A DNA stretch of 33,202 nucleotides from Clostridia bacterium (GCA_030530185.1 JAUMVL010000001.1:1-33202); one strand, 5' to 3'; counted from the first letter of the stretch, positions 1,213 to 31,616 are shown. The notes: a model not told the origin generated them from the letters alone. Made by a program: numbers and translations.

Positions 1213-3723
1213 TTATCGCCATTCATTGGAATAATACCAGCTCCCCAGCCCTGCACATAAAACGGTTCCGTCTGCCTTCAATCCGAATGTTACAAACTTA
1301 TCTCCCGTGATATCGATCACATCTTTCCATTCCGCGACGTTACATTGTCCGTGCTGATTGCCGTACTTATTGTCCGGATTAAATACAGAAACCAGTGTTC
1401 CGTCATTTTTTAAACCGATAATATGATCGCCGTTTGAGGACACAAGTATTTTTTTGATATTCAACCAGCTTGAAAGGATTGTTGGTAGCTGTGAAAATGG
1501 ATGTCCATTATAATTACTGTCCACGTGCTCCAACAACGACCCGTAATACTGATTGTTTGCGTCCACTTGATTCAGCTTCAATTTTCCATTTGAAAGAGTC
1601 ATGATGTCCGATGAGTCATCACCGTTTAAATCAACAGCGTCGGATCGTTGTCCCAGCTCCTCCCAAGGATATTTTCCCGTTGAAACCCACGAACCGCTCT
1701 TTGTTCTCCCGAATAATTTCAGGCCGATCTCTTTTACTTGGACAATATTGCCCCATTGCAGCGCCTCTTCGTTTTCTCCTGTGTGCCACGTATTCTGCCT
1801 TTCAGAATCAAAACATGCAGCAACAACCTTCCCGTTTTTATTCACTCCGTAAACCGTATAAGCGCCCGCTTCAATCGAAACAATATCTCTCCAACTTTGA
1901 AGTTCCTTCTCAAACGCCGTCGCCGAAGATCCGAAGTACCTATCTTTTTCACTCGATGGAATGCTGATGCATACGGTTCCATCGCTCTTCAATCCGAGAA
2001 CATAATGACAGGTTTGGCCGATATCAATTGCAACAATATCCGTCCAAGAGGAAAGATCTTGAAAATCATTCGCATAAAAGACTCGTTCCGCCTTGACTGT
2101 AACCGTTCCGTCTTCTCGCAACATAACTAGAAAAGCGTCTCCGTAGTGGAGCGATGCTTCTTGATTGACCGTCTTTTTCGGTACCGTCGTTGTCTGCGCC
2201 GCCTGCGGCGCGACTTCCGAGGCAAGCCGGAAGCTGCTCAGAATCCTGTAAAAGACTATTTCGGCGTCCCCGTGCATCTCGGAATCGATCAACGCCATAA
2301 GATAGGCGTGCTTTCCCGCCATCCAGACGGCAACCTCCACCCAATTGTCCTCGGTCCATTCGTCGGCCAAACTTGCAAGGTAACCGCCGTTCACTGCGAA
2401 TTTGCTGATCTTAAGACCGTTGGCAGCGGAAGGCGCAAGGGATTCCATAAAATCCGTGACAATGACATCGGGATCCTGCTCCCGGGCGGAAAGCTGCGCG
2501 ATCGGGATTGTCGTAACGAGGATGCGCCCCGTTTGGCCCTTGTTGTCGTCGGTAGGCTCAATGGTAACGCCGTCGTCAAAAAAGTCTGCTTTCCAGCCGG
2601 GATCGTTCAGCGTAAACGCAAAATCGAATTCATCCGCCGGACTGTAAACAAGCGTTCCGTCCAAAACAGGCGCGTTCGTTTGCGTCGGCACATCGGAGGC
2701 TTCCTGTAAACCTTGCGACGCTGCATCTTCTTGCGGCGTTCTTAGCGCAAAGCTGTTCAAAATGTCCTGATAAACCGCCTCCCCGTCCCGATCGAGACCG
2801 ACGCCATAGTATGCGATGGAAAACAGTCGATCTTCCACTTTCCATGCGGCCATTCGAGTGGTCCGGCTGTCGCGCTTTCCCTCGGCCCATACGCCCTTAT
2901 AGTTGCCGTTGACCGTAAGAGATTTCGGCTTACCGGAAACCGAATTCCTCTCGGTTTTCAACGCAAGTTCCACATATTCTTCCGGCGATTTCGAGTACTT
3001 TCTTCCAGTCGCCGACCCAGCCACCCAAATGCTGGTGGCAGGACCGCCTTCCCGCTCTTTTTCTGCCGCAGGACAAAAAACAAGTAGATTGTTCTGTTTT
3101 TCTGCCAACACCCAGTTATCGTTTCCGACGGCAACTTCAAAATCGTCTGCAGCGTACACCGTTCCACCCCGGATTTCCGCAAAGGTCTCCTCCTTCGGCG
3201 CCATGAGCGTTTCCAGATCGATGTTGTTTCCGATAAACGCAAGCAGCATAAAGATTCCTGCAATAATCAGTGCAGCGATGGAAAGACCTTTTTTGCGCGG
3301 CTGTGTGCGGCTCTTCACCAGATCGATAATCGCAAGGAGGATGCCGAGACCGGACAGAACAATCGTCAGCGAGCAGATGAAGGCGGCAATCGAAAGACCG
3401 GAGAATTTCTTCTTCGGCGCCGGTTCCGGTTTTTGTGAAGATTGGGGAGCGCTGCTTTGCGTTGGTCCATTTGCATTGCCCATCGGATGAGGCTCCGCAG
3501 TCCGAACCGGTTCTGCCTGCTTTCGGGGTTCCGGACGGGTCGCTTCGGCAGAGCATTCCTCTTGCGCAGGAGATTCCCACTCCCCGTCGTCCTCCAATTC
3601 ATATTCCGCTTCCGTATAAACGGGCTTTTTCGCCGGTTCTGTCACGGAAATCTTTTGTCCGCAATGCGGGCAGAACGATTCCCCTTCGCGCAGTTCGGCG
3701 CCGCAATTGGTGCAATATTTCAT
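1213..3723 (-). CDS. zinc-ribbon / 2-TM membrane protein with a duplicated ectodomain module and C-terminal RCC1-like beta-propeller repeats
   Basis: 836 aa. N-terminal CxxC-x11-CxxC (YCTNCGAELREGESFCPHCG), a Pro/Glu/Ala/Gln-rich linker and two hydrophobic helices (aa ~108-133 and 146-165). Two related ~145-aa modules follow, then repeated W-x-DIV-x-I-x-G...GLK-x-DGTV blades. RBS GAAGGAGAA upstream. Confidence 0.75.
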   Translation of the reverse strand: MKYCTNCGAELREGESFCPHCGQKISVTEPAKKPVYTEAEYELEDDGEWESPAQEECSAEATRPEPRKQAEPVRTAEPHPMGNANGPTQSSAPQSSQKPEPAPKKKFSGLSIAAFICSLTIVLSGLGILLAIIDLVKSRTQPRKKGLSIAALIIAGIFMLLAFIGNNIDLETLMAPKEETFAEIRGGTVYAADDFEVAVGNDNWVLAEKQNNLLVFCPAAEKEREGGPATSIWVAGSATGRKYSKSPEEYVELALKTERNSVSGKPKSLTVNGNYKGVWAEGKRDSRTTRMAAWKVEDRLFSIAYYGVGLDRDGEAVYQDILNSFALRTPQEDAASQGLQEASDVPTQTNAPVLDGTLVYSPADEFDFAFTLNDPGWKADFFDDGVTIEPTDDNKGQTGRILVTTIPIAQLSAREQDPDVIVTDFMESLAPSAANGLKISKFAVNGGYLASLADEWTEDNWVEVAVWMAGKHAYLMALIDSEMHGDAEIVFYRILSSFRLASEVAPQAAQTTTVPKKTVNQEASLHYGDAFLVMLREDGTVTVKAERVFYANDFQDLSSWTDIVAIDIGQTCHYVLGLKSDGTVCISIPSSEKDRYFGSSATAFEKELQSWRDIVSIEAGAYTVYGVNKNGKVVAACFDSERQNTWHTGENEEALQWGNIVQVKEIGLKLFGRTKSGSWVSTGKYPWEELGQRSDAVDLNGDDSSDIMTLSNGKLKLNQVDANNQYYGSLLEHVDSNYNGHPFSQLPTILSSWLNIKKILVSSNGDHIIGLKNDGTLVSVFNPDNKYGNQHGQCNVAEWKDVIDITGDKFVTFGLKADGTVLCAGLGSWYYSNEWR

Positions 3724-9621: not shown

Positions 9622-10644
9622 ATGTTTTTCTATTTCCCTGTCAAGCAAACGGACGGCACGGTGATCGGACGCGTCCGCGCCGAAAACGGTCGTGCGGTAT
9701 TGACACTTTCCCATCCGATCCAAGCGGATTTTTCCCTGTTTGCAGACGGCAATCCCGTCCCGCTGCTGCCGGACCAATCCGTTTCGGCGAATGTTCCAGA
9801 GGGGCTGATCGGCCTGAAGGACGGGGAGATCGTCTGCAGCGGGACCACGCCAAGCAGCAGCCTCAGTCCAAGGCAAATGCAGCAAGCTCTGTCCCGAATT
9901 CGCACCAGTCAAAGCAAGCAATCGACAGAATTCGCCAAAGAAGAACCGTCGAAACAAAAGGAAACCACGCAGCCTTTGCAAAACGAACCGAATTTCGTCG
10001 GCAATGCAATCCAAGATGGTGTATTTTTTTCGCAAGATAGGGAGGATCTTCGCTCAGACGCATTCGACACAAATCCAATTTGGGAGCAGCGGCCCAGCGA
10101 ACCGATCAACCGGGAAAATCCCCTTTATTTATGGGCAAAATCGGTTTTTTCCCGTTTGACACGCCGCTCCGATTCAAACGAGGAAAATGATTCTTTAGAC
10201 CCGAAAACGGTGCATAACGTGGATAATTCGGTGGATAACTCGTCGGAAATCTTTCAGCACATGAACCAAAAACAGGATACTCCTGTGTATTCGGACGGTC
10301 GAACCGTACCGAACCGGCAGGATACAGCGTCGGCTGCCCCGCAAAACGAGGGGAATTCGGGCGGGCGTTCAGACCCGCTGCTCGGATGGCGGGGCACCCC
10401 CCTGCAGCGAATCACGTTGTTCCCGCGAATTTTTCCGGGCGCAACGTGGCGATTCGTTGCAGATGACGGGATCGTGCCGCATTTTGAGGGGACCTGGCAG
10501 CACGGCGGCGAGCGGATTCGCATCCTTGCGGTGCGCGGCACCTATGCGCCGCAGCCGCCCGAGGGCTTGTCGGGGTTCACGCGCTATCTGCGCGCGGATG
10601 GAGCAGGCTACTGGGTGCGGCTGATTTCGCTCGGGCGGGTATAA
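9622..10644 (+). CDS. hypothetical protein (no family recognised)
   Basis: 340 aa with GAGGTG RBS 7 nt upstream. Structured N- and C-terminal parts flank a Ser/Gln/Glu/Asn-rich low-complexity middle. Ends at a terminator hairpin. Confidence 0.55.
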   Translation: MFFYFPVKQTDGTVIGRVRAENGRAVLTLSHPIQADFSLFADGNPVPLLPDQSVSANVPEGLIGLKDGEIVCSGTTPSSSLSPRQMQQALSRIRTSQSKQSTEFAKEEPSKQKETTQPLQNEPNFVGNAIQDGVFFSQDREDLRSDAFDTNPIWEQRPSEPINRENPLYLWAKSVFSRLTRRSDSNEENDSLDPKTVHNVDNSVDNSSEIFQHMNQKQDTPVYSDGRTVPNRQDTASAAPQNEGNSGGRSDPLLGWRGTPLQRITLFPRIFPGATWRFVADDGIVPHFEGTWQHGGERIRILAVRGTYAPQPPEGLSGFTRYLRADGAGYWVRLISLGRV

Positions 10645-16284: not shown

Positions 16285-18444
16285 GTGCACAACAATCGAA
16301 ACCGAAAGAACCTGCTATTCGCCATGCTGCTTGGTGCGCTGCTGTGTGCATGCGCCGTCCGACCCGAACCGGAACTTCTTTCGGCAACGCGGACACCGAG
16401 CGAGATCGAGACGACCTTCATCGAGGTCGTTTCACCGTCACCGACGCCGCAGCCGCATCTCGATCTGGATGCGTACTGCATCGATGCGCAAAACGGTGTT
16501 TACGACATCCTGCCGCTGCTGGAGAAAAGCGAGCAGACGCTGCTGCATGCGGGCTTTTGTGCAAAAAACGAGCTGTTATTGTTTTCCACCGATCCGCAGG
16601 GCATACAGCTGATCGTGGAGCGATTCCGTCTGGATACCGGCACGCGCAGTCTTTGCTTTTCCGAAACACTCTCCGAACCGATTCGGGAGGCGGACGCCTT
16701 TTTATACTACGGCATGAATCCGCCCGCTTTGTATGACGCTGCCGCAGACGAGCTGCTGCTCTTTTCCTCCGACTGTACAGCGCTTACGCGGCTGCCCGTG
16801 AACGGACTCATCTTTTCCGAATGCCGGTGGGACGGACATTTCCTTTTGCTGTTTGACGAAGCCGACCGAACGTTGAAACGGTTTACGCCGGACGGTACCG
16901 AAACAGCGATCTTTCACCCCGGCTACCAATATCGCAACGGATCGCTGCTGTCTTTCGACCGGGACGGACGGTATGCGTCGATCACCGCAACCGATAACCG
17001 CACCGACGAGGACGGAACGCTCCTGATCGACCTGTCGAACGGTTCGATTCTCGGTTGGCAACCGGGCGAGGTTCGCCTTGCTTTCTCGGAAAACGGATAT
17101 GCGACGCTGACCCGCAACTATGAATGGAACGAAGCGGAAAGCCGAACCGAATTGGTCTTCAAATCCGCCGACAAATTGGATGCGGATACGGTCTACCTCG
17201 TTCGGCAGGAGCGCACGGACTATTATCCGACAATCTATCCGGCGGCAGGAAGCTATTTGTTCGAGGACTGGAACGGCGATTATACGCTGCGGGTCGCGGA
17301 GGCATCCGGACAGAACGCAATGCGTCTTATCGTCCCGCTCGATCCGTATCAGGCCATTGCCGATGCGATGCGTGAAGCCGCACCGACGCCGGATCCCGAC
17401 CGGGAGGAGGACGGAGACGACCTGTGGTTTCTTTACCCGCGGACAGAACGCGACGGCTTCGACGGGCATTATACGCTGACCTCGGTGCTGTGCGGAACCG
17501 AGCGGATCGGTATGCTGCTTTGGGATACATCGCGCGGTGAATCGGAAACGACTCCGGGCATTACAATGGCGGAGCCGCTGTTTGTCCCGATTCCGACCGT
17601 CTTGATCGACTGCGGCGACTTTGCGGAGCGAATTGCGCGCATCCATGACTCGTATGGAATTACCGTGCTGCTGGGGGAGGAAGCAAACCTTTCGATGGGA
17701 ACGCATAGCGCCGAGCCGCTGCCGATTGCCGCGAACCGGGACTTGCTTGATTCGGCGTTCGACATTTTGGAAAGCACGCTGTCCGACTACCCGCCGCAGT
17801 TTTTCCAAACGCTTTGCCAAGGCTCCCTTGATGGAATCGTCCTGGAATTCTGCGGCACGATCCGCTCCACGGACACCACGTCGCTCGACTTCCCGTCCGC
17901 GCTGACGCGCACGCTCGATCGCTACCGCGTGATCGTTTTGGATACGCATTTTCTCTCCGACATGCGATATACGATCTTTCACGAAGTCTCGCACATGATT
18001 GACACCAAGCTCGATGACGACCCGAATCTCGACGAAGCGATCTGGAGCAGCGAGGGATGGGACGCGCTGAACCCAAGCGGGTTTTCGTATTACTTTGCCT
18101 ATAACGAAGAGGATGGCGATCCGTATGACGTCGTCGGCTCCTCGGATTATACCGAATGGGACAGCGCGTATCAGGAGCACGGCAAGCAGGAAGCGGTGTA
18201 CTTTGTCGATATCTATTCCAAAACCTTCCCGACCGAGGATCGCGCGGTTCTGCTCGGAACGCTGCTGCGCGATGACGAAAACGATGCTCTTTTGCGCTGC
18301 CCGCATCTGTTTGAAAAGCTCTGCTACTATGCGCGCGCGATCCGCGCCTGCTTCGATCCGGGCGGAACGCTGTGGCCCGAGCCGACTGTTTGGGAACGTC
18401 GGATCGAATCGCTGCAAAATGATATTGGGGAGAATGCAGCGTAA
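16285..18444 (+). CDS. putative lipoprotein with a C-terminal HExxH (zinc metallopeptidase-like) motif
   Basis: 719 aa. GTG start with AGGAGG 6 nt upstream. Signal peptide with a lipobox-like LLGALLCAC. HEVSH encoded at 17980-17994. No family recognised by eye. Confidence 0.65.
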   Translation: MHNNRNRKNLLFAMLLGALLCACAVRPEPELLSATRTPSEIETTFIEVVSPSPTPQPHLDLDAYCIDAQNGVYDILPLLEKSEQTLLHAGFCAKNELLLFSTDPQGIQLIVERFRLDTGTRSLCFSETLSEPIREADAFLYYGMNPPALYDAAADELLLFSSDCTALTRLPVNGLIFSECRWDGHFLLLFDEADRTLKRFTPDGTETAIFHPGYQYRNGSLLSFDRDGRYASITATDNRTDEDGTLLIDLSNGSILGWQPGEVRLAFSENGYATLTRNYEWNEAESRTELVFKSADKLDADTVYLVRQERTDYYPTIYPAAGSYLFEDWNGDYTLRVAEASGQNAMRLIVPLDPYQAIADAMREAAPTPDPDREEDGDDLWFLYPRTERDGFDGHYTLTSVLCGTERIGMLLWDTSRGESETTPGITMAEPLFVPIPTVLIDCGDFAERIARIHDSYGITVLLGEEANLSMGTHSAEPLPIAANRDLLDSAFDILESTLSDYPPQFFQTLCQGSLDGIVLEFCGTIRSTDTTSLDFPSALTRTLDRYRVIVLDTHFLSDMRYTIFHEVSHMIDTKLDDDPNLDEAIWSSEGWDALNPSGFSYYFAYNEEDGDPYDVVGSSDYTEWDSAYQEHGKQEAVYFVDIYSKTFPTEDRAVLLGTLLRDDENDALLRCPHLFEKLCYYARAIRACFDPGGTLWPEPTVWERRIESLQNDIGENAA

Positions 18445-21498: not shown

Positions 21499-21527
21499 TT
21501 GACAATTTGCGCATGCTCTGCTATCAT
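21499..21527 (+). promoter_or_regulatory. promoter candidate TTGACA-17-TATCAT with TGn extension for scfA
   Basis: ttgaca atttgcgcatgctctgc tatcat, 34 nt upstream of the scfA ATG. Confidence 0.55.
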
Positions 21528-21560
21528 ATATGAGATGAAATATGTTTGGAGGATTGTACC

Positions 21561-21707
21561 ATGACGCATATCAAAACGATCAAAACCCGCAATCTGTGCG
21601 AGAGCGCAAAGAACGGCGGCTGCGGCGAGTGCCAGACTTCCTGCCAGTCCGCTTGCAAGACCAGCTGCGGTATCGCAAATCAGAAGTGCGAAAAGTCGGC
21701 CAAATAA
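21561..21707 (+). CDS. scfA: SCIFF (six-cysteines-in-forty-five) ranthipeptide precursor
   Basis: Hand-translated 48 aa: MTHIKTIKTRNLCESAKNGGCGECQTSCQSACKTSCGIANQKCEKSAK. It carries the invariant GGCGECQTSCQSACKTSC core. GGAGGA RBS. It lies immediately upstream of the cognate radical-SAM maturase. The ORF track only shows a spurious 75-aa ORF in another frame. Confidence 0.92.
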   Translation: MTHIKTIKTRNLCESAKNGGCGECQTSCQSACKTSCGIANQKCEKSAK

Positions 21708-21732
21708 CCGACGTCAAGCAAACGTTACAGGG

Positions 21733-21760
21733 AATGCCGTCCTTTTCGGGCGGCATTTTT
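21733..21760 (+). terminator. intercistronic hairpin plus T-run between scfA and scfB (possible partial terminator)
   Basis: aatgccg(tcc) ttttc (ggg)cggcatt followed by ttt. It sits 26 nt after the scfA stop and 20 nt before the scfB ATG. Confidence 0.4.
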
Positions 21761-21779: not shown

Positions 21780-23171
21780 ATGATTCATGCCTATCAACTC
21801 GGCGGATACAACATCGTTCTCGATGTCTGCTCCGGCGCGGTGCACGCGGTGGACGAGGTCAGCTATGCGCTGATTACGCACTTTGAAGGCGTCGATCGCG
21901 AAAAGCTGATCGACGGGCTCCATGCGGCACACCCTGACGACCCGATGTATACCGTCGAGGAGCTGAACGCCTGCTACGATGAAATCCTTGCCCTGAAGGA
22001 GGCCGGCCAGCTGTTTTCGCCGGATACGTTCCGACCGATGGCAAATACGCTGAAAAGCCGCACCTCGGGCGTCGTCAAGGCGCTGTGCCTGCACGTTGCG
22101 CATACCTGCAACCTCAACTGCGCTTACTGCTTTGCAAGCCAGGGCAAATACAAGGGCGAGCGGGCGGTCATGTCCTTTGAAGTCGGCAAACAGGCATTGG
22201 ACTTTCTGGTCGCACATTCCGGCACGCGCAAGAATCTCGAAGTGGACTTTTTCGGCGGCGAACCGCTGATGAATTTCGACGTGGTCAAACAACTCGTTGC
22301 CTACGCCAGAACGCTCGAACCGAAATTTCATAAGACCTTCCGCTTTACCCTGACCACCAACGGCGTGCTGATCGACGACGACGTGATCGATTTCTGCAAC
22401 CGGGAAATGAGCAACGTCGTTTTGAGTCTTGACGGGCGCAAGGAAATCCACGACCGCTATCGCGTGGACTATGCGGGAAACGGCAGCTGGGAAAAAATCG
22501 TGCCGAAGTTTCAAAAGCTCGTTGCGGCGCGCGGCGGGAAGAATTACTATATGCGCGGCACATTCACGCATGCCAACCCCGATTTTCTCAAGGACATTCA
22601 GACGATGCTCGATCTCGGCTTTACCGAGCTTTCGATGGAGCCTGTCGTCTGTGCCGAGGACAGCCCCGATCGGCTGACTGAAACGGATCTTCCGATCGTC
22701 TGCGAACAGTATGAACAGCTTGCGGAATTGCTGATCCGGCGGCGCAGGGAGGGACGGCCGTTTACGTTCTATCATTATATGATCGACCTGACGGGCGGCC
22801 CATGCATCTATAAGCGCATTTCGGGCTGCGGATCCGGCACCGAATACATGGCAGTCACACCGTGGGGCGATCTGTACCCGTGCCACCAGTTTGTCGGCGA
22901 GGAGCGCTTCAAGCTCGGCGATATCTGGACCGGTGTGACGAATACCGCCGTACAGAATGAATTTGCCGGTTGCAACGTCTATGCGCACCCGGAATGCGGC
23001 GAATGCTGGGCACGGCTGTACTGCTCCGGCGGCTGCGCGGCAAACGCCTATCACGCAACCGGTTCAGTGACCGGTGTCTATCGCTATGGCTGCGAGCTGT
23101 TTCGAAAGCGCATGGAATGCGCGATCATGGCAGCGGTGGACGAACAGCTTGCGGAGAACGGCGATGTCTGA
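21780..23171 (+). CDS. scfB: radical SAM/SPASM thioether cross-link-forming SCIFF peptide maturase
   Basis: 463 aa. N-terminus MIHAYQLGGYNIVLDVCSGAVHAVDE is typical of ScfB. Radical-SAM motif CNLNCAYC. SPASM Cys clusters (CGSG...PCHQF, CGECWARLYCSGGCAANA). Adjacent to scfA. Confidence 0.93.
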   Translation: MIHAYQLGGYNIVLDVCSGAVHAVDEVSYALITHFEGVDREKLIDGLHAAHPDDPMYTVEELNACYDEILALKEAGQLFSPDTFRPMANTLKSRTSGVVKALCLHVAHTCNLNCAYCFASQGKYKGERAVMSFEVGKQALDFLVAHSGTRKNLEVDFFGGEPLMNFDVVKQLVAYARTLEPKFHKTFRFTLTTNGVLIDDDVIDFCNREMSNVVLSLDGRKEIHDRYRVDYAGNGSWEKIVPKFQKLVAARGGKNYYMRGTFTHANPDFLKDIQTMLDLGFTELSMEPVVCAEDSPDRLTETDLPIVCEQYEQLAELLIRRRREGRPFTFYHYMIDLTGGPCIYKRISGCGSGTEYMAVTPWGDLYPCHQFVGEERFKLGDIWTGVTNTAVQNEFAGCNVYAHPECGECWARLYCSGGCAANAYHATGSVTGVYRYGCELFRKRMECAIMAAVDEQLAENGDV

Positions 23172-25286: not shown

Positions 25287-27413
25287 ATGAAACGGTTCTT
25301 TGCATTTCTTCTGATCGGCGCCCTGCTGTTTACCGCATGCGCGGCCCAGACGGCGAACGCCGAAAAACAACCCGCAACCGCCGCACCGGCCTCAACGCAG
25401 GCCGCGGCTTCTCAGGAAAGCACGCCGACGGCGGCTTTGACCGATCCGACGGATGCCGCCAGGGAGACGACCGATGCCTTTTCGATTACGACCGACAACG
25501 GCGCGGTGAGCGCATCCGGCTCGGTTTACACGATCACCGCAGCCGGGGAATACACGATCGGCGGCGCACTCTCGGACGGACAGATCGTTGTGGACGCGGG
25601 AGAGGAGGATGAGGTGAAGCTCCTTTTGAATAACGCCTCGGTCACCTGCACGACGGATGCGCCGATCCTTGTCAAAAATGCCGGCGAGGTCACCGTCAAG
25701 GCCGAAAAGAACACCTACAACACCGTAAGCGATCTCCGAACCGGCGACGCTTCCGCCGCGAGCGAGGAAAATTACGACGCTGCAATCTATGCGGCATGCG
25801 ATCTGAAACTGACCGGCTCCGGCACCCTGATCGTGACGAGCACATACGACAACGGCGTCAAATCGAAGGACGATCTGTCGGTCAAAAATATGACGTTAAA
25901 GGTCACCGCCGTCGGCAACGCGCTGAAAGGGAACGATTCGGTCGAGATCAAGTCCGGTGCGCTGATGCTGACCTCGACGGCATCGGATGGAATCAAAACC
26001 GAGAATACGGACGTTTCGTCGAAGGGCAATCAACGCGGCACGGTCACGATTTCAGGCGGACAGGTCGACATCTACGCCGCGTGCGACGCCATCCATGCGG
26101 CTTACAATGTGGAAATCTCCGATGAGGAAAGCTGTATCGTCAACCTCTATACGGCCTCATACGCCTCCGAAAGCACGGCTGCCGCGGGAGCGGAGCAATA
26201 CCTGATTGTTCCTTCGTCGCTGTACAGTGAGGACTACGAGTACTACGTTTACCTCTACAATGAGGACGATGCCGCGGGCGCATGGGTTAAGTGCACCTAT
26301 GACACGATGGTATACAGCGGGCGCACCGCCTATTACGGCCTTGCATACCGCACGACCGGCTCCTACCAGAACCTGCTTTGGAACCTGGTACCGGCCGGAA
26401 CGGCGCCGGATGGCACCAATTACGTCGCCGCAAGTACCGGCGAAACCGTCAATGGCTCGATGAACGCCTATCTGATCACATCCATTTCCTCCGGCGTGAT
26501 CGCGGGCGACTGGGTACAGCTGTCGAGCGGCTCCGGCAGCTCGAACAAGACGACGTATTCGGCAAAGGGCATCAAGGCTGCAAATGAAATTCTCATCACG
26601 GGCGGGACGATCAGCGTGTACGCGATGGACGACGGCCTCCACGCCAACGGCGGCGATGCGCTTGAAAACGGCGCTGCCGGCCTCGGCAACGTTACGATCA
26701 GCGGCGGAACCCTCTCAATCACCTCCGCGGATGATGGCATTCACGCGGATGGAGCGCTGACCATTGACGACGGAACGGTTGCGGTCGTCGATTCGCACGA
26801 GGGGCTCGAGGGCAACGTCATCACAATCAACGGTGGAACCATCTCGGTCTACGGCGATGACGACGGCATCAACGCCTGCTCGGGCAGCGCGACTCCGCTG
26901 CTGACGATCAACGGCGGCAGCCTGACTGTCACGACGCCCTCCGGCGATACCGATGCGATCGACTCGAACGGCAATTTGAGTATGACCGGCGGCGCCGTGC
27001 TTGTACGCGGCGGCACACAGATGGGCAATATGGCGGGCTCGGTGGATGTGGACGGTTCCATCACGGTCTCCGGCGGCACAATCGCAGCATTCGGCGGCAT
27101 CTGCCAGATTCCGTCCAACGGCTCGGTCAATACCTACGTTTCCAATGGAACGTCGTTTGCCGCAGGCGATTATCAGCTCAAAGACGCGAGCGGCAACGTG
27201 CTTTTCAGCTTTACACTCGATACCGGCTACTCCTCCTGCTGGATCGCGTCGGAGGCCTTTGCGCTCGGCAGCAGCTATACGCTGGAAAAGGACGGAACTA
27301 TTGTTCTGAACTGGACACAGTCGTCCAACACCGAGGGCGCAACCGGCAATTATGGTGGGTTCGGCGGCACGGGCGGCTTCGGCGGTCACGGCGGTTGGGG
27401 CGGCAGACGGTAA
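25287..27413 (+). CDS. carbohydrate-binding beta-helix lipoprotein, Cthe_2159-like family
   Basis: 708 aa. Signal peptide with lipobox-like LLFTAC. The characteristic opening ...YTITAAGEYTIGGALSDGQIVVDAGEEDEVKLLLNNASVTCTTDAPILVKNA. Many DDG(I/L)(H/N/K)A repeats typical of parallel beta-helix coils. Gly-rich C-terminal tail. Confidence 0.78.
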   Translation: MKRFFAFLLIGALLFTACAAQTANAEKQPATAAPASTQAAASQESTPTAALTDPTDAARETTDAFSITTDNGAVSASGSVYTITAAGEYTIGGALSDGQIVVDAGEEDEVKLLLNNASVTCTTDAPILVKNAGEVTVKAEKNTYNTVSDLRTGDASAASEENYDAAIYAACDLKLTGSGTLIVTSTYDNGVKSKDDLSVKNMTLKVTAVGNALKGNDSVEIKSGALMLTSTASDGIKTENTDVSSKGNQRGTVTISGGQVDIYAACDAIHAAYNVEISDEESCIVNLYTASYASESTAAAGAEQYLIVPSSLYSEDYEYYVYLYNEDDAAGAWVKCTYDTMVYSGRTAYYGLAYRTTGSYQNLLWNLVPAGTAPDGTNYVAASTGETVNGSMNAYLITSISSGVIAGDWVQLSSGSGSSNKTTYSAKGIKAANEILITGGTISVYAMDDGLHANGGDALENGAAGLGNVTISGGTLSITSADDGIHADGALTIDDGTVAVVDSHEGLEGNVITINGGTISVYGDDDGINACSGSATPLLTINGGSLTVTTPSGDTDAIDSNGNLSMTGGAVLVRGGTQMGNMAGSVDVDGSITVSGGTIAAFGGICQIPSNGSVNTYVSNGTSFAAGDYQLKDASGNVLFSFTLDTGYSSCWIASEAFALGSSYTLEKDGTIVLNWTQSSNTEGATGNYGGFGGTGGFGGHGGWGGRR

Positions 27414-27454: not shown

Positions 27455-27480
27455 ACGGCGGCGGAATCATCCGCCGCCGT
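27455..27480. terminator. perfect 10-bp GC-rich hairpin at the left edge of the AT-rich islet (terminator candidate)
   Basis: acggcggcgg aatcat ccgccgccgt. A T-rich but interrupted tail follows on the plus strand. It lies 3 nt from the stop of the convergent ligase gene. Confidence 0.45.
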
Positions 27481-27483
27481 TGG

Positions 27484-29292
27484 CTATCGCTTTGTTTGAT
27501 TTTGTCTATAAAAACGTCGAAGGGTTTCACGGTCTATTTTTCCTTCACTCGTATAAGGAATCTTTATAAGAACATAGTCTCCGTCATCCTTTGGTCTATC
27601 ACGAACCGGTATCCTATTCTCAACTGCAGCAATAATGTTTTTTAATGGTTCAGTAGTATTCTTGATATCTGGTCTTAATTCTATAAACGCTACAGGATAC
27701 TCTCCGATTATCGAAGAATCATCTTTTATACCAATAACAACACAGTTCTCTACTTGCTTGTTTTCTAAAATTACTCGTTCGATCTCTACCGGAAATACGT
27801 TGTGTCCGTCCGGTCTTACAATCATTTGTTTTTTTCTTGATGTTAGAATAAAGAACCCTTCTTGATCTACAAAACCCAGATCTCCGGAGCGGCCCCACTT
27901 TTTTCCATTCTCATCTATAAAAAAGAACGCTTCTGTTTCTGCATCATTATTTATATATCCTCGCATTTCCTGTGGAGACGAGAGGTAAATCTCCCCGATT
28001 TCATTATACTTGCATTCGGTATAATCGTCTTTCATAACCTTTGCATCGACGAGGGGAAGAGGAATTCCATATACTCCTGGTTTCTTTGTTTTATCAAATG
28101 GTGTTTCAAAAGCGCATGAAGAGTATTCTGCCATTCCGCCACCTTTTATTAAAGTTGAAAGCGAGTTGTGATTGTATAACCATTTATTGACTTTTTCTTC
28201 AAATTCTGGCGTCGTTCTATCTCCTCCAAAGATGATGCGTTTAATGAAAGACATATCCTCATGTTCAAGTAATTTGCTTTCAATCACATGACTAAACATT
28301 GACGGAACACATATAACATTATTCGGTTTGTGATCTAAAATCAATTTTGGAAAAGACTCAACAGTAAAATTGGGAATCAAGTGTAGTTCAAAGCCGGCGC
28401 AAAGGGACATGTGTATACCTGTAACAGCGCCGTAACTAATAAAAGGAGGCATAATACCAAGTAAGCTTTCTCCGCAAACCGTTTGGTTGATTTGAATTAG
28501 TTGAGCCGCAGTTACATTCATTCCTTTAGCTGTCAACTCTAGCCCTTTGGGGACTCCGGTTGTTCCGCTTGTATATTCAATAATTGATGTTTTTCCTTCC
28601 CGATAATCTGCTATTTTAAAATTTGAATGTGTTGCACCAGCATATACATCGAATGGCAAGATAGTATACGTCTGTTTATTAAAATGCAATCTGCTTTTGA
28701 AGAAGGAAACGCATCCCATCCAATTTTTCTGAGCGATTAATTCTGTCCTTTTGAGTATAGAATAATTATTTTTTAACCATCTTTTTTGTTCTGTCTTATT
28801 CATGCACGCTAAAGGAGAAACCGGTATTATTGTCTCCAGCATTGAATCTTTTGCCGCTTCAATCATTGTATTCAAATAAGGAGTGGTAATACATCCAACT
28901 TTCACCTCTGTTAAATTGATATAGAACCGCATGCGTTCCGTTGGAATTCTGGGATCTATCAGGTTTGCAACAGCCCCTATCTGATCTAGCCCATACATCA
29001 TAAAAACAGTATCTGGAGTCAAAGGCATCGCTAATGCAACAGATTCATTTTCTTTCACTCCTAAATTCTGAAAAAAGCGACTAAAACGATCTATATTTTC
29101 AAACAATTCCTGATATGTATAGGTTTTTCCATAAAAAGAAAGTGCTTTTAAAAAGAGATTATTTCTGTTACAATCACGCAAATATTGAGACAATGACATA
29201 TCTGGAACTTTTATTGCTAAATCTTTCTCAGAATAGTATTTCAGCCACGGTTTGTCGATGGACGGATAACCCGTCAGTTTTGTCTGCTCCAT
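27484..29292 (-). CDS. class I adenylate-forming enzyme (AMP-dependent synthetase/ligase, ANL superfamily), substrate unknown
   Basis: 602 aa. AMP-binding signature YTSGTTGVPKG at aa 240-250. Downstream GDLG and hinge/K motifs (GDLGFVDQEGFFILTSRKKQMIV, ...YTSEGKIDR). AAGGAGG RBS. Confidence 0.85.
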   Translation of the reverse strand: MEQTKLTGYPSIDKPWLKYYSEKDLAIKVPDMSLSQYLRDCNRNNLFLKALSFYGKTYTYQELFENIDRFSRFFQNLGVKENESVALAMPLTPDTVFMMYGLDQIGAVANLIDPRIPTERMRFYINLTEVKVGCITTPYLNTMIEAAKDSMLETIIPVSPLACMNKTEQKRWLKNNYSILKRTELIAQKNWMGCVSFFKSRLHFNKQTYTILPFDVYAGATHSNFKIADYREGKTSIIEYTSGTTGVPKGLELTAKGMNVTAAQLIQINQTVCGESLLGIMPPFISYGAVTGIHMSLCAGFELHLIPNFTVESFPKLILDHKPNNVICVPSMFSHVIESKLLEHEDMSFIKRIIFGGDRTTPEFEEKVNKWLYNHNSLSTLIKGGGMAEYSSCAFETPFDKTKKPGVYGIPLPLVDAKVMKDDYTECKYNEIGEIYLSSPQEMRGYINNDAETEAFFFIDENGKKWGRSGDLGFVDQEGFFILTSRKKQMIVRPDGHNVFPVEIERVILENKQVENCVVIGIKDDSSIIGEYPVAFIELRPDIKNTTEPLKNIIAAVENRIPVRDRPKDDGDYVLIKIPYTSEGKIDRETLRRFYRQNQTKR

Positions 29293-29313
29293 AATATAAA
29301 ACCTCCTTAATGA

Positions 29314-29892
29314 TTAGGTGTAGATTAGAATTAAGACAGCAAATAAAATCAACACCAAAAACATGACCGTTGTGATAATATAAGACATATTTATGCCTAA
29401 TATATAGTCTGCTTTCTTTTTCACTGTCATTTTATTAAAGGGAATATCTATCCTCAAATCTTCTTCCCGCAAATCTTCCGGGAGGTTGTGTATCATTTTC
29501 CGATAGATAGCACCGGTAATGCTAAACCGTCGCACATAACCCCACATCACAAAAATGAACAACAAGGATAAAACTATGCCTGCCACAGGGAACAGCTTAA
29601 AAGGTATTGATGCTGGAATGCAAACATGTAACGTCCATGTCGTCAGGTACGGGAATACAATAACGGCAAGCGTAAAAGTATAGTATGAAAAAGCCTGTTT
29701 CCATAGAGACGAATCTCTATGGTCCCATTCTGACAAGTATATCTCCATCAAGTGCAGAAACTGATCAGTATTCTCTATCGGTATCATTCCATCGAATTTG
29801 TTTCGTTCTTCCTTGTTGTCCGTACCGGTTTCCTTAATGGTTGTTTTCTCTTTGATGCTCTTTTCTGTTTCTTTAAAATACTCATATTCCAT
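29314..29892 (-). CDS. orphan membrane protein with three predicted TM helices and a charged N-terminal ~45 aa
   Basis: 192 aa with AGGAGG RBS. Hydrophobic segments FSYYTFTLAVIVFPYL, LFPVAGIVLSLLFIFVMWGY and MSYIITTVMFLVLILFAVLILIY. It ends 21 nt upstream of the ligase gene, so the two are probably one operon. Confidence 0.6.
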   Translation of the reverse strand: MEYEYFKETEKSIKEKTTIKETGTDNKEERNKFDGMIPIENTDQFLHLMEIYLSEWDHRDSSLWKQAFSYYTFTLAVIVFPYLTTWTLHVCIPASIPFKLFPVAGIVLSLLFIFVMWGYVRRFSITGAIYRKMIHNLPEDLREEDLRIDIPFNKMTVKKKADYILGINMSYIITTVMFLVLILFAVLILIYT

Positions 29893-29950
29893 AATGATGC
29901 CTCCTGTTATGGTTTTTCACGCATAAATGATTCTGCCACAGCCATATTTA

Positions 29951-30003
29951 GTCTATATATAGACTATTTTACCATATATGGTCCAAAAAGTCTATATATG
30001 GTC
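29951..30003. promoter_or_regulatory. array of three related 14-bp palindromic operator-like boxes
   Basis: GTCTATATATAGAC at 29951-29964 (perfect palindrome). tACCATATATGGTc at 29970-29983 (perfect 12-bp core). GTCTATATATGGTC at 29990-30003 (a hybrid of the two half-site types). Box centres are 19 and 20 bp apart. Confidence 0.55.
29966..29994 (-). promoter_or_regulatory. promoter candidate TAGACT-17-(TGg)TAAAAT for the membrane-protein/ligase operon
   Basis: Minus-strand read is tagact ttttggaccatatatgg taaaat. The boxes overlap the -35, fill the spacer and cover the start-site region. Confidence 0.45.
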
Positions 30004-30030
30004 TTTGTTGCAGAACGTTCCTGTTACGAT
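30002..30030 (+). promoter_or_regulatory. weak promoter candidate with an extended -10 (TGtTACGAT) for the XRE gene
   Basis: tgt tacgat at 30022-30030. The -35 is poor (tctttg) and overlaps operator box 3. Confidence 0.3.
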
Positions 30031-30058
30031 AAAACTAAGAATTAACAGGGAGTAGATT

Positions 30059-30301
30059 ATGAACACACGAGAATATGTAGTAAAAAGGATATTAGATCTG
30101 TGCAACGAGAAACGACTGACAATCAACGGACTTGCACGTCTATCTGCCTTGCCGCCATCAACACTAAAGAATATCATCAACGGCGCAAGTCAGAACCCTG
30201 GAGTTGTAACCTTAAAAAAGATATGTGATGGACTGGAGATCTCAATGATAGATTTCTTCGATACGGACGACTTTCGTGTAATTGAACAAGAAATACGATA
30301 G
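30059..30301 (+). CDS. XRE-family helix-turn-helix transcriptional regulator
   Basis: 80 aa. ...LCNEKRLTINGLARLSALPPSTLKNIINGASQNPGVVTLKKICDGLEISMIDFF is the classical Cro/CI-type HTH_3 pattern. AGGGAG RBS. Confidence 0.85.
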   Translation: MNTREYVVKRILDLCNEKRLTINGLARLSALPPSTLKNIINGASQNPGVVTLKKICDGLEISMIDFFDTDDFRVIEQEIR

Positions 30302-30427
30302 AGTCAACTTCATCCAATAATAATATCATAAAATACGCGCCTTTTCTTGTATTGGATAAGTGTGCTGAAGAATATTGAACCCTCCCTTGACAAATGCAGT
30401 CATAAGTGTGTTCTTCTGGAAAAAGAA

Positions 30428-30443
30428 ATTCCCCTTAAGGGGA
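30428..30443 (-). terminator. short hairpin plus T-run, possible terminator of the GH13/eIF-2B-like operon
   Basis: ttcccc ttaa ggggaa, followed on the minus strand by tttcttttt. It lies about 110 nt downstream of the stop at 30552. Confidence 0.35.
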
Positions 30444-30551
30444 AAAACTTTTGGATATATGTTTGAAGACTCCTTTATAGAGCAGCTCTTCTGCTATGTT
30501 TTACAGCAGTCTGCCTAGCTTGTCAAAAGCATTTTTGACAAACTGCTTTTC

Positions 30552-31616
30552 TTATACCACAACCTCATACTCGCCGGTGCTGCCGCTTTCGGCATATCGC
30601 CACAGATCGTACGGGCAAAAGATGCCCTGGTCGGTGACGACGCCGGAGACGAGCTCGGGCGGCGTAATGTCGAATGCGGGATAGTAACCCTTCACGCCGT
30701 CGCGCGCAGTTTTGACGCCCATGGCCTGCAGGACAAAGTCCGGATCGCGCATTTCGATCTTGACGTCCTTCACCGTGGGGTGCACAAGGTCCGGCGCGCC
30801 CGTTACAAAGTACGGAATACCCATATACTTGGCCGCGATCGCGATCTGGAACGTACCGACCTTGTTGATCACGTGTCCGTCCATGCAGATCGCATCCGCT
30901 GCGGAGGTAAACACATTGACGTTTTCGTTTTTCAGTACGAATGCGGGCATGTTGTCGGTGATGACCGTCACATCGAAGCCCATTTCATAGCAGACCGTGG
31001 CGGTCAGCCGTGCGCCCTGGAAATACGGACGCGTTTCGGGACAGAAGATGCGGAAGGTTTTGCCCTTTTGTTTGGCCTCCTTGAGCATCATGCCGACGAT
31101 CGTTTCCGCAAAGCACTGTGTCATAACGGTTCCGCCGTTTGGGATCTGTCCGACCAGATACGTTGCCATCTTGGCGATCTTGTGATAGCGGCTGTTGTTG
31201 GCCTCGATCGCCCGCGCCTTGATCGCCTCGGCAACGTCCACGCCGGAACCCCAAGCGGCTTCGGCCGCCTCCGTCATGGTTTTGCAGATCTGCGCCATGC
31301 GCTTGGCTGTCGTCGGTCGCGCGTTTGTGATGCAGTCCGCCGCTTCCCTCAGAAATTGCCGCTGCCTTGCTTCGCTCTCGTTTCGACACTCGTATGCCGC
31401 GAGCGCCATACCCATTGCCGCCGCCGTATACGGTCCGGCGCTTTGCGTCACCATATCTGTGACGGCCTTGGCGACTTCGGCATAGTGCGTGCACGTGACA
31501 AACGACACTTTACGCGGATAGCAGCGCCGGTCCAGAATACGCACCCTGCCGTCCTCGAACCACGCAATGTTCTCATATTGCAGCATGAATGCCAACTCTT
31601 TGTCCTGTCGTTCCAT
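30552..31616 (-). CDS. eIF-2B alpha/beta/delta-like (MtnA-type sugar-1-phosphate isomerase) family protein, divergent
   Basis: 354 aa, colinear with methylthioribose-1-phosphate isomerases (ETRPYFQGARLTA, NKVGT, PAFDITPPELVSGVVTDQG). AGGAG RBS inside the 3' end of the upstream GH13 gene, with a 4-nt gap. Confidence 0.78.
   Translation of the reverse strand: MERQDKELAFMLQYENIAWFEDGRVRILDRRCYPRKVSFVTCTHYAEVAKAVTDMVTQSAGPYTAAAMGMALAAYECRNESEARQRQFLREAADCITNARPTTAKRMAQICKTMTEAAEAAWGSGVDVAEAIKARAIEANNSRYHKIAKMATYLVGQIPNGGTVMTQCFAETIVGMMLKEAKQKGKTFRIFCPETRPYFQGARLTATVCYEMGFDVTVITDNMPAFVLKNENVNVFTSAADAICMDGHVINKVGTFQIAIAAKYMGIPYFVTGAPDLVHPTVKDVKIEMRDPDFVLQAMGVKTARDGVKGYYPAFDITPPELVSGVVTDQGIFCPYDLWRYAESGSTGEYEVVV

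Follow-up and report, generated by a model that had tools for sequence, protein, structure and literature searches.

A recently transferred AT-rich islet of an uncultured Clostridia bacterium pairs a small membrane protein gene with an ANL adenylating enzyme gene

Introduction

Operons in which a membrane protein is encoded together with an enzyme of the ANL superfamily are known from lipid handling, for instance lplT-aas of Escherichia coli, the FadL/FadD system of vectorial acylation and dltX-dltA. LplT is a flippase of the major facilitator superfamily with 12 transmembrane (TM) segments, Aas carries an acyltransferase domain, and the dlt system needs DltB and DltC. An arrangement of this kind lies in an AT-rich islet at positions 27484-30551 of the 33.2-kb stretch of DNA analysed here (the window), which is a complete contig in the metagenome-assembled genome (MAG) of an uncultured Clostridia bacterium. 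The islet encodes a small regulator and, divergent from it, an operon in which the gene of a 192-amino-acid (aa) membrane protein precedes that of a 602-aa adenylating enzyme (the ligase). The likeness to lplT-aas, FadL/FadD and dltX-dltA is that of a membrane component directly upstream of an adenylating enzyme, suggesting substrate delivery or membrane-localised acyl activation. This is a resemblance in the possible mode of action and not membership; the partners and additional domains of those systems are absent from the islet. Neither DltB (MBOAT) nor the carrier protein DltC, both belonging to D-alanylation operons of the dlt type, is encoded among its three genes, whose neighbours are a Cthe_2159 beta-helix lipoprotein gene and a gene of the MtnA/eIF-2B-like type (MtnA-like gene).

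By analogy only, the islet may also be compared with CBASS and Pycsar systems that use TM effectors. Like them, it combines a compact ATP-consuming enzyme with a small membrane protein of oligomer type, consists of foreign DNA under presumed tight control and has some homologues in defence islands. Unlike them, it encodes no cyclase or nucleotidyltransferase, and neither the ligase nor the membrane protein has a match in PADLOC. To our knowledge, ANL enzymes are not parts of defence, exclusion or addiction systems, nor do they generate immunity signals, and a literature search on ANL enzymes in defence found nothing relevant. The regulatory part of the islet recalls Cro/C1 switches and C-protein controllers, in that a small HTH_26/HTH_3 protein is encoded divergently from its presumed target and three spaced palindromes, to which binding is here predicted, overlap the promoter. 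This regulator is not conserved with its cargo in other lineages.

Composition and Recent Transfer of the Islet

The islet (3.1 kb; 3,068 nucleotides, nt) has a G+C content (GC) of 0.368, against 0.565 in the rest of the contig. Among 245 non-islet segments of 3,068 nt the mean GC is 0.567 with a standard deviation of 0.021 and a minimum of 0.505, so that the islet lies about 9 standard deviations below. A 100-nt profile steps at approximately 27480-27500 and 30540-30560, from 0.53-0.63 outside to 0.33-0.38 inside. GC at third codon positions (GC3) is 0.31 in the ligase gene, 0.45 in the membrane protein gene and 0.40 in the regulator gene, compared with 0.70-0.74 in four flanking genes.

Open reading frame (ORF) and Pfam analysis placed the ligase gene, the second of the operon, at 27484-29292 and the membrane protein gene, the first, at 29314-29892, both on the minus strand. 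A divergent promoter/operator region of 166 nt (29893-30058) separates them from the plus-strand regulator gene (30059-30301), beyond which 250 nt of non-coding AT-rich DNA (30302-30551; GC 0.364) extend to the stop codon of the MtnA-like gene. At the left edge, a GC-rich hairpin (27455-27480), probably a terminator serving both the Cthe_2159 gene and the ligase gene, was assigned to the host flank because a mismatch between strains falls at 27476. Searches of the islet for mobility features revealed no tRNA, no ORF of an integrase or transposase, and no flanking direct repeat or att site.

Two further assemblies, with the 119-kb contig L004 of GCA_045539355.1 and the Logan contig L005, also contain both junctions of the islet. 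The flanks of L004 and L005 differ from the window at 1.31% and 1.34% of positions (98.6-98.7% identity), whereas their islets differ at only 1 and 3 of the 3,068 positions (99.90-99.97% identity). About 40 differences would be expected from the divergence of the flanks, with Poisson P values of 1.6e-16 and 1.6e-14 for the observed numbers. The tract of low divergence ends at mismatches at 27476 and 30639, in agreement with the compositional edges, and includes the non-coding right end. Since the islet is far less diverged than its flanks, it must be much younger than the divergence of the strains, between which it has been passed without a change of site. Given that no integrase and no repeats were found, it most likely spread by homologous recombination in the flanking DNA. 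The abrupt break in composition and the MAG source might also be explained by an assembly or binning artefact, in which a low-GC fragment was mis-joined into a high-GC contig. Both junctions nevertheless recur in two further independent assemblies whose flanks are about 1.3% different from the window, and a chimera is ruled out by these shared junctions, leaving the artefact with a practically negligible probability.

More distant relatives were scanned with one genome per species, giving 78 loci with an MtnA-like gene at 53-90% identity, and at none of them (0 of 78) do the three islet genes stand beside that gene. At the locus with the closest MtnA-like gene (L014, 90% identity), the lipoprotein gene and the MtnA-like gene are still syntenic on either side, separated by only about 640 nt of DNA of normal GC. 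The corresponding interval spans 5.4 kb in the window, where it holds the Cthe_2159 gene and the islet. As these relatives are just 75-81% identical in DNA, the comparison demonstrates non-conservation of the islet and not an exact empty site. The Cthe_2159 gene (window 25287-27413) is also missing at the syntenic site of L014 (7457-8104), so that variation at this hotspot, which lies between the genes of the lipoprotein and the MtnA-like protein, is not limited to the islet itself. In another relative (L042, 2983-5765; MtnA 65% identity), a 574-aa ANL ligase gene of native GC begins at the stop codon of the MtnA-like gene. Its product is 29% identical to the window ligase, and its position and orientation match those of the islet ligase. 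The match may be fortuitous, or may hint that MtnA-like and ligase genes are functionally connected.

Foreign composition and recent transfer of the islet are thus demonstrated. It combines deviating composition, absence in relatives and low divergence between strains, and has no mobility functions of its own. An earlier note on this DNA, made from the sequence alone, had described a sharp AT-rich stretch of 3.1 kb with three genes, about 250 nt of non-coding DNA at the right end and no integrase, transposase, tRNA or flanking repeat; all of this was borne out, the composition by sliding-window GC and the layout by ORF and Pfam analysis. Its view of the islet as compact cargo of foreign origin is likewise supported by GC, GC3 and strain divergence. 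Where it had proposed to look for empty sites in relatives, the islet proved absent at the 78 loci and L014 proved syntenic, whereas an exact empty site was not seen.

Pairing of the Membrane Protein and Ligase Genes

The membrane protein and ligase genes form a bicistronic operon. They are separated by 21 nt (29293-29313, minus strand), in which a ribosome-binding site, AAGGAGG, read from the sequence, precedes the ligase ATG by 8 nt; L001 and L002 have corresponding spacings of 18 and 14 nt, respectively. Sequence comparison shows that the pair recurs in three lineages with different ligase clades, namely the window with L004 and L005, L001 with L091, and L002, an ANL ligase gene following 14-21 nt downstream of the membrane protein gene in each. 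Linkage to a ligase is restricted to the subclade of the window's membrane protein, and within it a ligase gene follows in all members with downstream sequence on their contigs. In the next more distant relative (P0005, 34% identity), the gene of a secreted acidic protein takes the place of the ligase gene.

Across the three lineages the membrane proteins are 54-66% identical, the ligases just 36-38%. Each lineage's ligase is closer to other ligases, that of L001 being 74% identical to P0103 and that of the window 63-65% identical to P0008 and P0010, which have no membrane partner. GC3 of the membrane protein gene is 0.40-0.47 in the three lineages; the ligase genes have values of 0.31, 0.37 and 0.73. 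The pattern suggests repeated juxtaposition and not shared descent of the block. As the membrane protein gene appears to have been joined to different ligases of one broad family, selection for the pairing is favoured; a preference in insertion or recombination is a possible alternative for the repeated adjacency. A charged N-terminal extension (MDYEYSKETEK...) is conserved in the membrane proteins of the ligase-linked subclade, and other family members are without it.

The contig of L002 (124-1385 of 1.4 kb) displays a sharp GC3 step, from 0.47 in the membrane protein gene to 0.73 in the ligase gene 14 nt downstream, suggesting that the membrane protein gene was placed before a resident ligase gene. 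In addition, the first 22 residues of the ligase are identical between the window and L002. A recent recombination joint at the 5' end of the ligase gene was considered and rejected; these residues form a motif shared across the whole family, and synonymous differences separate the two DNA sequences.

The earlier note had also raised the question of whether homologues of the membrane protein and the ligase stand together elsewhere, with or without the regulator. The two genes do so in L001/L091 and in L002, but the regulator is not conserved with them and most sampled members of the membrane protein family are free of a ligase.

The Membrane Protein and Its Family

The membrane protein has a charged N-terminal tail (residues 1-40), an amphipathic helix containing LMEIYLSEW(D/E)HRD, and hydrophobic helices at approximately 66-86, 100-121 and 168-191. 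Hydropathy and the positive-inside rule suggest a topology with the N-terminus inside, three spans and a cytoplasmic loop at 121-167. An AlphaFold monomer model from an 80-sequence alignment (predicted local distance difference test, pLDDT, 84.8; predicted template modelling score 0.73) shows a disordered charged N-terminus and helices at 42-86, 100-135 and 169-191; an earlier model on 5 sequences had been poor (pLDDT 65). Foldseek searches of the PDB and BFVD with the model gave no match below E = 0.3, profile searches of PDB sequences returned chance TM matches only, and no family of NCBIfam, PHROG or PADLOC matches the protein.

Close relatives are rare, with 5 clusters found by a word-indexed search. 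An exhaustive profile search recovered 310 representative clusters at 50% identity, 193 of them with E <= 1e-10. The members are mostly 150-200 aa long and share the motif LxLMxIYLxEWxHRDxxLWxQ. With a family of about 310 clusters around it, most sampled members of which occur without a ligase, the protein is not the orphan it had been taken for. A few longer members have extra domains, one a cupin and one Cna_B, which might point to the binding of a ligand or to exposure at the surface.

The nearest described profile is the Pfam family 8xMP (PF24838, 'Octameric membrane protein family'). Its size is similar, and the window protein and 19 other members align to it over nearly the full length (profile 4-133 of 136). 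With 20.1 bits against a gathering score of 30, the window protein is only a remote, sub-threshold relative of 8xMP, and the idea that the family grades into 8xMP was abandoned, no member reaching 30 bits.

Among distant members, one adjoins a gene of the GmrSD_C/HEC-06 type (L092), two stand alone on the opposite strand within blocks that have strong PHROG matches (L098 and L103), and others stand beside a large serine recombinase gene (L099-L102). These contexts point to lone genes in prophage, plasmid or defence-island settings. A phage or plasmid origin of the islet genes themselves was considered and set aside, since the searches of INPHARED, PLSDB and IMG/VR detailed below returned no relative.

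The Ligase and Its Relatives

The ligase is a complete two-domain member of the ANL superfamily (class I adenylate-forming enzymes, FadD-like), matching Pfam AMP-binding (PF00501) with 191.1 bits and AMP-binding_C (PF13193) with 30.1 bits, above the gathering scores of 29.9 and 24.5, respectively. The P-loop YTSGTTGVPKG at 240-250 (T241-K249), E389 (A5), D471 (A7), R486 (A8) and K585 (A10) are invariant across 28 clade members of 43-65% identity, and the enzyme is predicted to be catalytically intact. The best NCBIfam models are long-chain-fatty-acid--coenzyme A (CoA) ligases, the top one being PRK06187 (239 bits; cut-off 476); each of the 107 NCBIfam models that match stays under its cut-off, so that no FadD equivalog is assigned. 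The nearest solved structures are luciferases, FadD-1 of A. fulgidus (PDB 3g7s) and 4-coumarate-CoA ligases. More than 2,700 homologues at E below 1e-30 were found, mainly in gut and rumen Firmicutes, annotated as acyl-CoA ligases. With FadD-type acyl-CoA synthetases (PRK06187/PRK05605, 3g7s) the ligase shares the two-domain ANL build, the core motifs and a FadD-like N-terminus (PWLKYY). It differs from them in its low identity to annotated enzymes (at most about 29%), in approximately 45 extra residues of the N-terminal domain before the P-loop, and in the location of its gene on a mobile islet behind a membrane protein gene.

The neighbourhoods of related ligases are diverse, and a gene of the membrane protein family was found at none of ten other ligase loci. 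The gene of P0010 (63% identity; L006/L007) is preceded by an HTH_26 gene and forms part of a defence island with PrimPol-helicase-PLD and SLFN/pAgo-associated-like genes. The genes of P0015, P0016 and P0026 (53-55%) are each followed by that of a hybrid histidine kinase, two of them also by an Hpt-response regulator gene, and one of these loci has diacylglycerol (DAG) kinase and phosphatidylserine (PS) decarboxylase genes further downstream. Beside the gene of P0008 (65%) there is no obvious partner. At L094 an AbiD gene lies about 4 kb (three genes) upstream of the ligase gene. Defence genes near relatives of the ligase or the membrane protein are, in this small sample, suggestive at L006, L092 and L094 and not at L008-L011, L093 or L095.

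Two further observations concern these loci. In L007, a 51-aa ORF (2391-2546) without a family match overlaps the stop codon of the P0010 ligase gene (ATGA); there is no membrane protein gene upstream, and the ORF may encode a different small ligase partner. The pairing of ligase and phosphorelay genes recurs at L008 8001-13084, L011 4470-8999, L095 34-3604 and L096 831-4401, in genomes with a GC of 0.26-0.29, the kinase having the architecture HisKA-HATPase_c-Response_reg.

The Regulator and the Candidate Operator

The 80-aa regulator is a helix-turn-helix (HTH) protein of the XRE/Cro-C1 type, matching Pfam HTH_26 with 33.7 bits (cut-off 22) and HTH_3 with 26.6 bits (cut-off 23). In PADLOC it has weak matches to control-protein and CapH-type regulators only.

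The divergent region upstream of its gene (GC 0.337) contains three operator-like palindromes with a TATATA core: O1 (tAGTCTATATATAGACTa, 29949-29966), O2 (ACCATATATGGT, 29971-29982) and O3 (AGTCTATATATGGTCT, 29989-30004). O2 was read from the sequence; O3 combines one half-site of the O1 type with one of the O2 type, and the centre of O2 lies 19 bp from that of O1 and 20 bp from that of O3. The motif AGWCYATATATRGWCT has 2 matches in the window, both in this intergenic region, versus 0.01 expected. A minus-strand -35/-10 match with an extended TG (TAGACT-17-TAAAAT, 29994-29966) overlaps the palindromes. The divergent layout with a plausible control region, as proposed before, is supported by the palindromes and the promoter match, and the XRE protein is predicted to repress the operon at this tripartite candidate operator.

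One of the three differences of L005 within the islet, at 29962 (938-953 region of L005), falls inside O1 and leaves L005 with a single exact motif copy, possibly a natural variant in regulation.

As a member of a conserved unit with the pair, however, the XRE gene does not hold up: L001 has none within 640 nt upstream, and XRE genes adjacent to other ligase genes are not detectably related to it. A conserved cassette of XRE and ligase genes was accordingly rejected, the HTH genes upstream of the ligase genes in L007 and L011 not being detectably related to the window XRE gene.

In the right end of the islet, a terminator scan found terminator-like hairpins at 30429-30445, with a minus-strand T-run, and at 30517-30544. 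No Rfam family was matched by this 250-nt region, and its folding z-scores reach only -1.8 and -2.1. The sole Rfam match, to CsrC (20.8 bits against 61), was discarded as merely the GC-rich terminator hairpin.

Other Genes of the Contig

The remaining contig is of housekeeping character, encoding UvrA, IspDF, a melibiase and a SCIFF maturase. The SCIFF peptide gene (approximately 21,500-21,750) and its radical-SAM maturase gene (21780-23171), together corresponding to L004 16121-17731, are found some 4.3 kb left of the islet and are followed by an Orn/Lys/Arg decarboxylase gene; the composition there is ordinary. An 836-aa protein (1213-3723, minus strand), encoded in the stretch of second-lowest GC (0.45-0.53), has an N-terminal zinc ribbon as its sole recognisable feature. 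The ORFs at 9622-10644 (plus strand) and 16702-18417 (minus strand) have no Pfam match.

Possible Roles of the Pair and Alternative Explanations

The reading favoured here, tentatively and short of calling it probable, is that the membrane protein and the ligase form a functional unit with an accessory role in membrane or envelope conflict. A low-GC islet entered a Clostridia species of about 57% GC recently and then passed from strain to strain without changing its site. The Cro/C1-type repressor would bind the three palindromes over the operon promoter and keep the operon off. The first product, a three-helix inner-membrane protein that is presumably oligomeric, comes from a family linked to mobile elements. 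At the membrane, the ligase would convert a carboxylic acid into an acyl-adenylate or a thioester, with fatty or other organic acids as the most likely substrates, and would be docked to the membrane oligomer or act on or through it. The role would most likely be exclusion, defence-like or immunity-like, and not core lipid metabolism. Physical or functional coupling, the class of substrate and the role in conflict are what we infer from circumstantial evidence, and a function in conflict, or an accessory one at the membrane, is a plausible but unproven proposal.

A bolder version, which is speculative and improbable at present, would make the pair a new conflict system, with the ANL enzyme supplying catalysis to an oligomeric effector in the membrane. 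The ligase might then acylate or adenylate the conserved N-terminal tail of the effector (MDYEYSKETEK...), or it might make an acyl-adenylate or a product of the dinucleotide-polyphosphate type that opens or arms the pore. As specificity diversified, an enzyme of one ligase clade could be exchanged for that of another.

Several observations weigh against a functional unit with a role in conflict. The pair is seen in three lineages only, on partner contigs that are all short (1.4-2.8 kb), and the XRE gene is not conserved with it, L001 having none within 640 nt upstream. Most close relatives of the ligase (52-65%) occupy ordinary chromosomal settings, beside genes of hybrid histidine kinases, DAG kinase/PS decarboxylase or a tRNA methyltransferase. 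Matches to 8xMP are found in 20 of 140 family members, all sub-threshold (best 24.9 bits, E 2e-5), and in none of the other 120; a literature search found no paper describing 8xMP, and function can therefore not be transferred. Relatives were not found among INPHARED phages (tblastn with the membrane protein and two distant relatives), PLSDB plasmids (tblastn with the membrane protein) or, by pattern scans with the ligase, the ligase-clade alignment and the membrane protein alignment, in IMG/VR. PADLOC-DB v2 has no match for the ligase or the membrane protein, with one chance-level match among 80 family members; as no model matches, no known defence system uses these parts, and an assignment to one was rejected. 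The earlier statement that the genes match no described system is in keeping with these searches (PADLOC, NCBIfam and PHROGs). The further step that the earlier note took, to a defence, immunity or toxin-like module, is an unproven hypothesis based on a handful of neighbourhoods only, and its overall interpretation is partly supported.

Vectorial acylation provides a different account, in which the islet is an acid-scavenging or detoxifying cassette: the membrane protein would admit or present an exogenous acid, the ligase would trap it as acyl-CoA or acyl-adenylate (acyl-AMP) for lipid synthesis or detoxification, and the XRE protein would simply repress its own locus in the ordinary way, the whole being niche-adaptive with no role in conflict. 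The best family matches of the ligase to long-chain-fatty-acid--CoA ligases, FadD-1 among its solved relatives, the annotation of its many gut and rumen homologues, the DAG kinase and PS decarboxylase genes beside 53%-identity relatives, and the native-GC ligase gene directly after the MtnA-like gene in L042 agree with this account, and the gene order recalls lplT-aas and FadL/FadD. However, ligase-free members of the membrane protein family stand alone in prophage, plasmid or defence-island settings, which is odd for an uptake facilitator, and the three-helix protein has no transporter family match. The ligase scores are all far under equivalog cut-offs, and three ligase clades imply different substrates for one membrane partner. 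Vectorial acylation is thus considered rather unlikely, though by no means far-fetched.

Another possibility is that the two genes are not functionally coupled at all. The islet could be a mosaic of independent cargo, with a 'moron' membrane protein gene (superinfection-exclusion or holin-like, for example) upstream of an unrelated acyl-CoA ligase gene, their adjacency resulting from shared ancestry of the block with gene conversion of the ligase, or from an insertion preference for the conserved 5' end of ligase genes. The solitary membrane protein genes in most sampled contexts, the ten ligase loci without one, and the different GC3 of the two genes (0.45 versus 0.31 in the window, 0.47 versus 0.73 in L002) are compatible with such a mosaic, and the 22 identical N-terminal ligase residues could serve as a recombination substrate. 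Yet the shared ligase N-terminus is family-wide with synonymous differences, so there was no recent joint; the spacing is operon-tight with a ribosome-binding site in all three lineages, and the conserved N-terminal extension of the membrane protein is confined to the ligase-linked subclade. Independent cargo is judged unlikely on balance. A toxin-antitoxin or addiction module that stabilises the islet would assign the membrane protein the part of a depolarising toxin, checked by the XRE protein transcriptionally or by the ligase enzymatically. XRE proteins are common antitoxins or regulators, small helical membrane proteins are common toxins, and the promoter is predicted to be under tight operator control. 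The XRE gene is nevertheless divergent and 166 nt away, not co-transcribed as in a type II bicistron, and absent in the L001 lineage; a 602-aa ANL enzyme is without precedent as an antitoxin, and no toxin-antitoxin family of Pfam, NCBIfam or PADLOC matches the islet proteins. An addiction module is therefore very unlikely.

Significance

A small, horizontally acquired accessory operon controlled by a repressor is a well-known kind of element, while this combination of cargo is in none of the databases searched. Even on an ordinary reading, the locus, from an uncultured Clostridia lineage of the gut or rumen, is a clean natural case of very recent, integrase-free transfer in which the divergence of the cargo is 20-40 times below that of the flanks, and its predicted three-site operator switch is open to direct testing. 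If the membrane protein and the ligase are a functional unit, they would be an undescribed two-component module of a mobile-element-type membrane oligomer and an acyl-activating enzyme, and would give the first functional handle on an unannotated membrane protein family of about 310 clusters. If a role in conflict were confirmed, this would be new biology, adding the ANL superfamily to the enzymes of prokaryotic immunity and exclusion.

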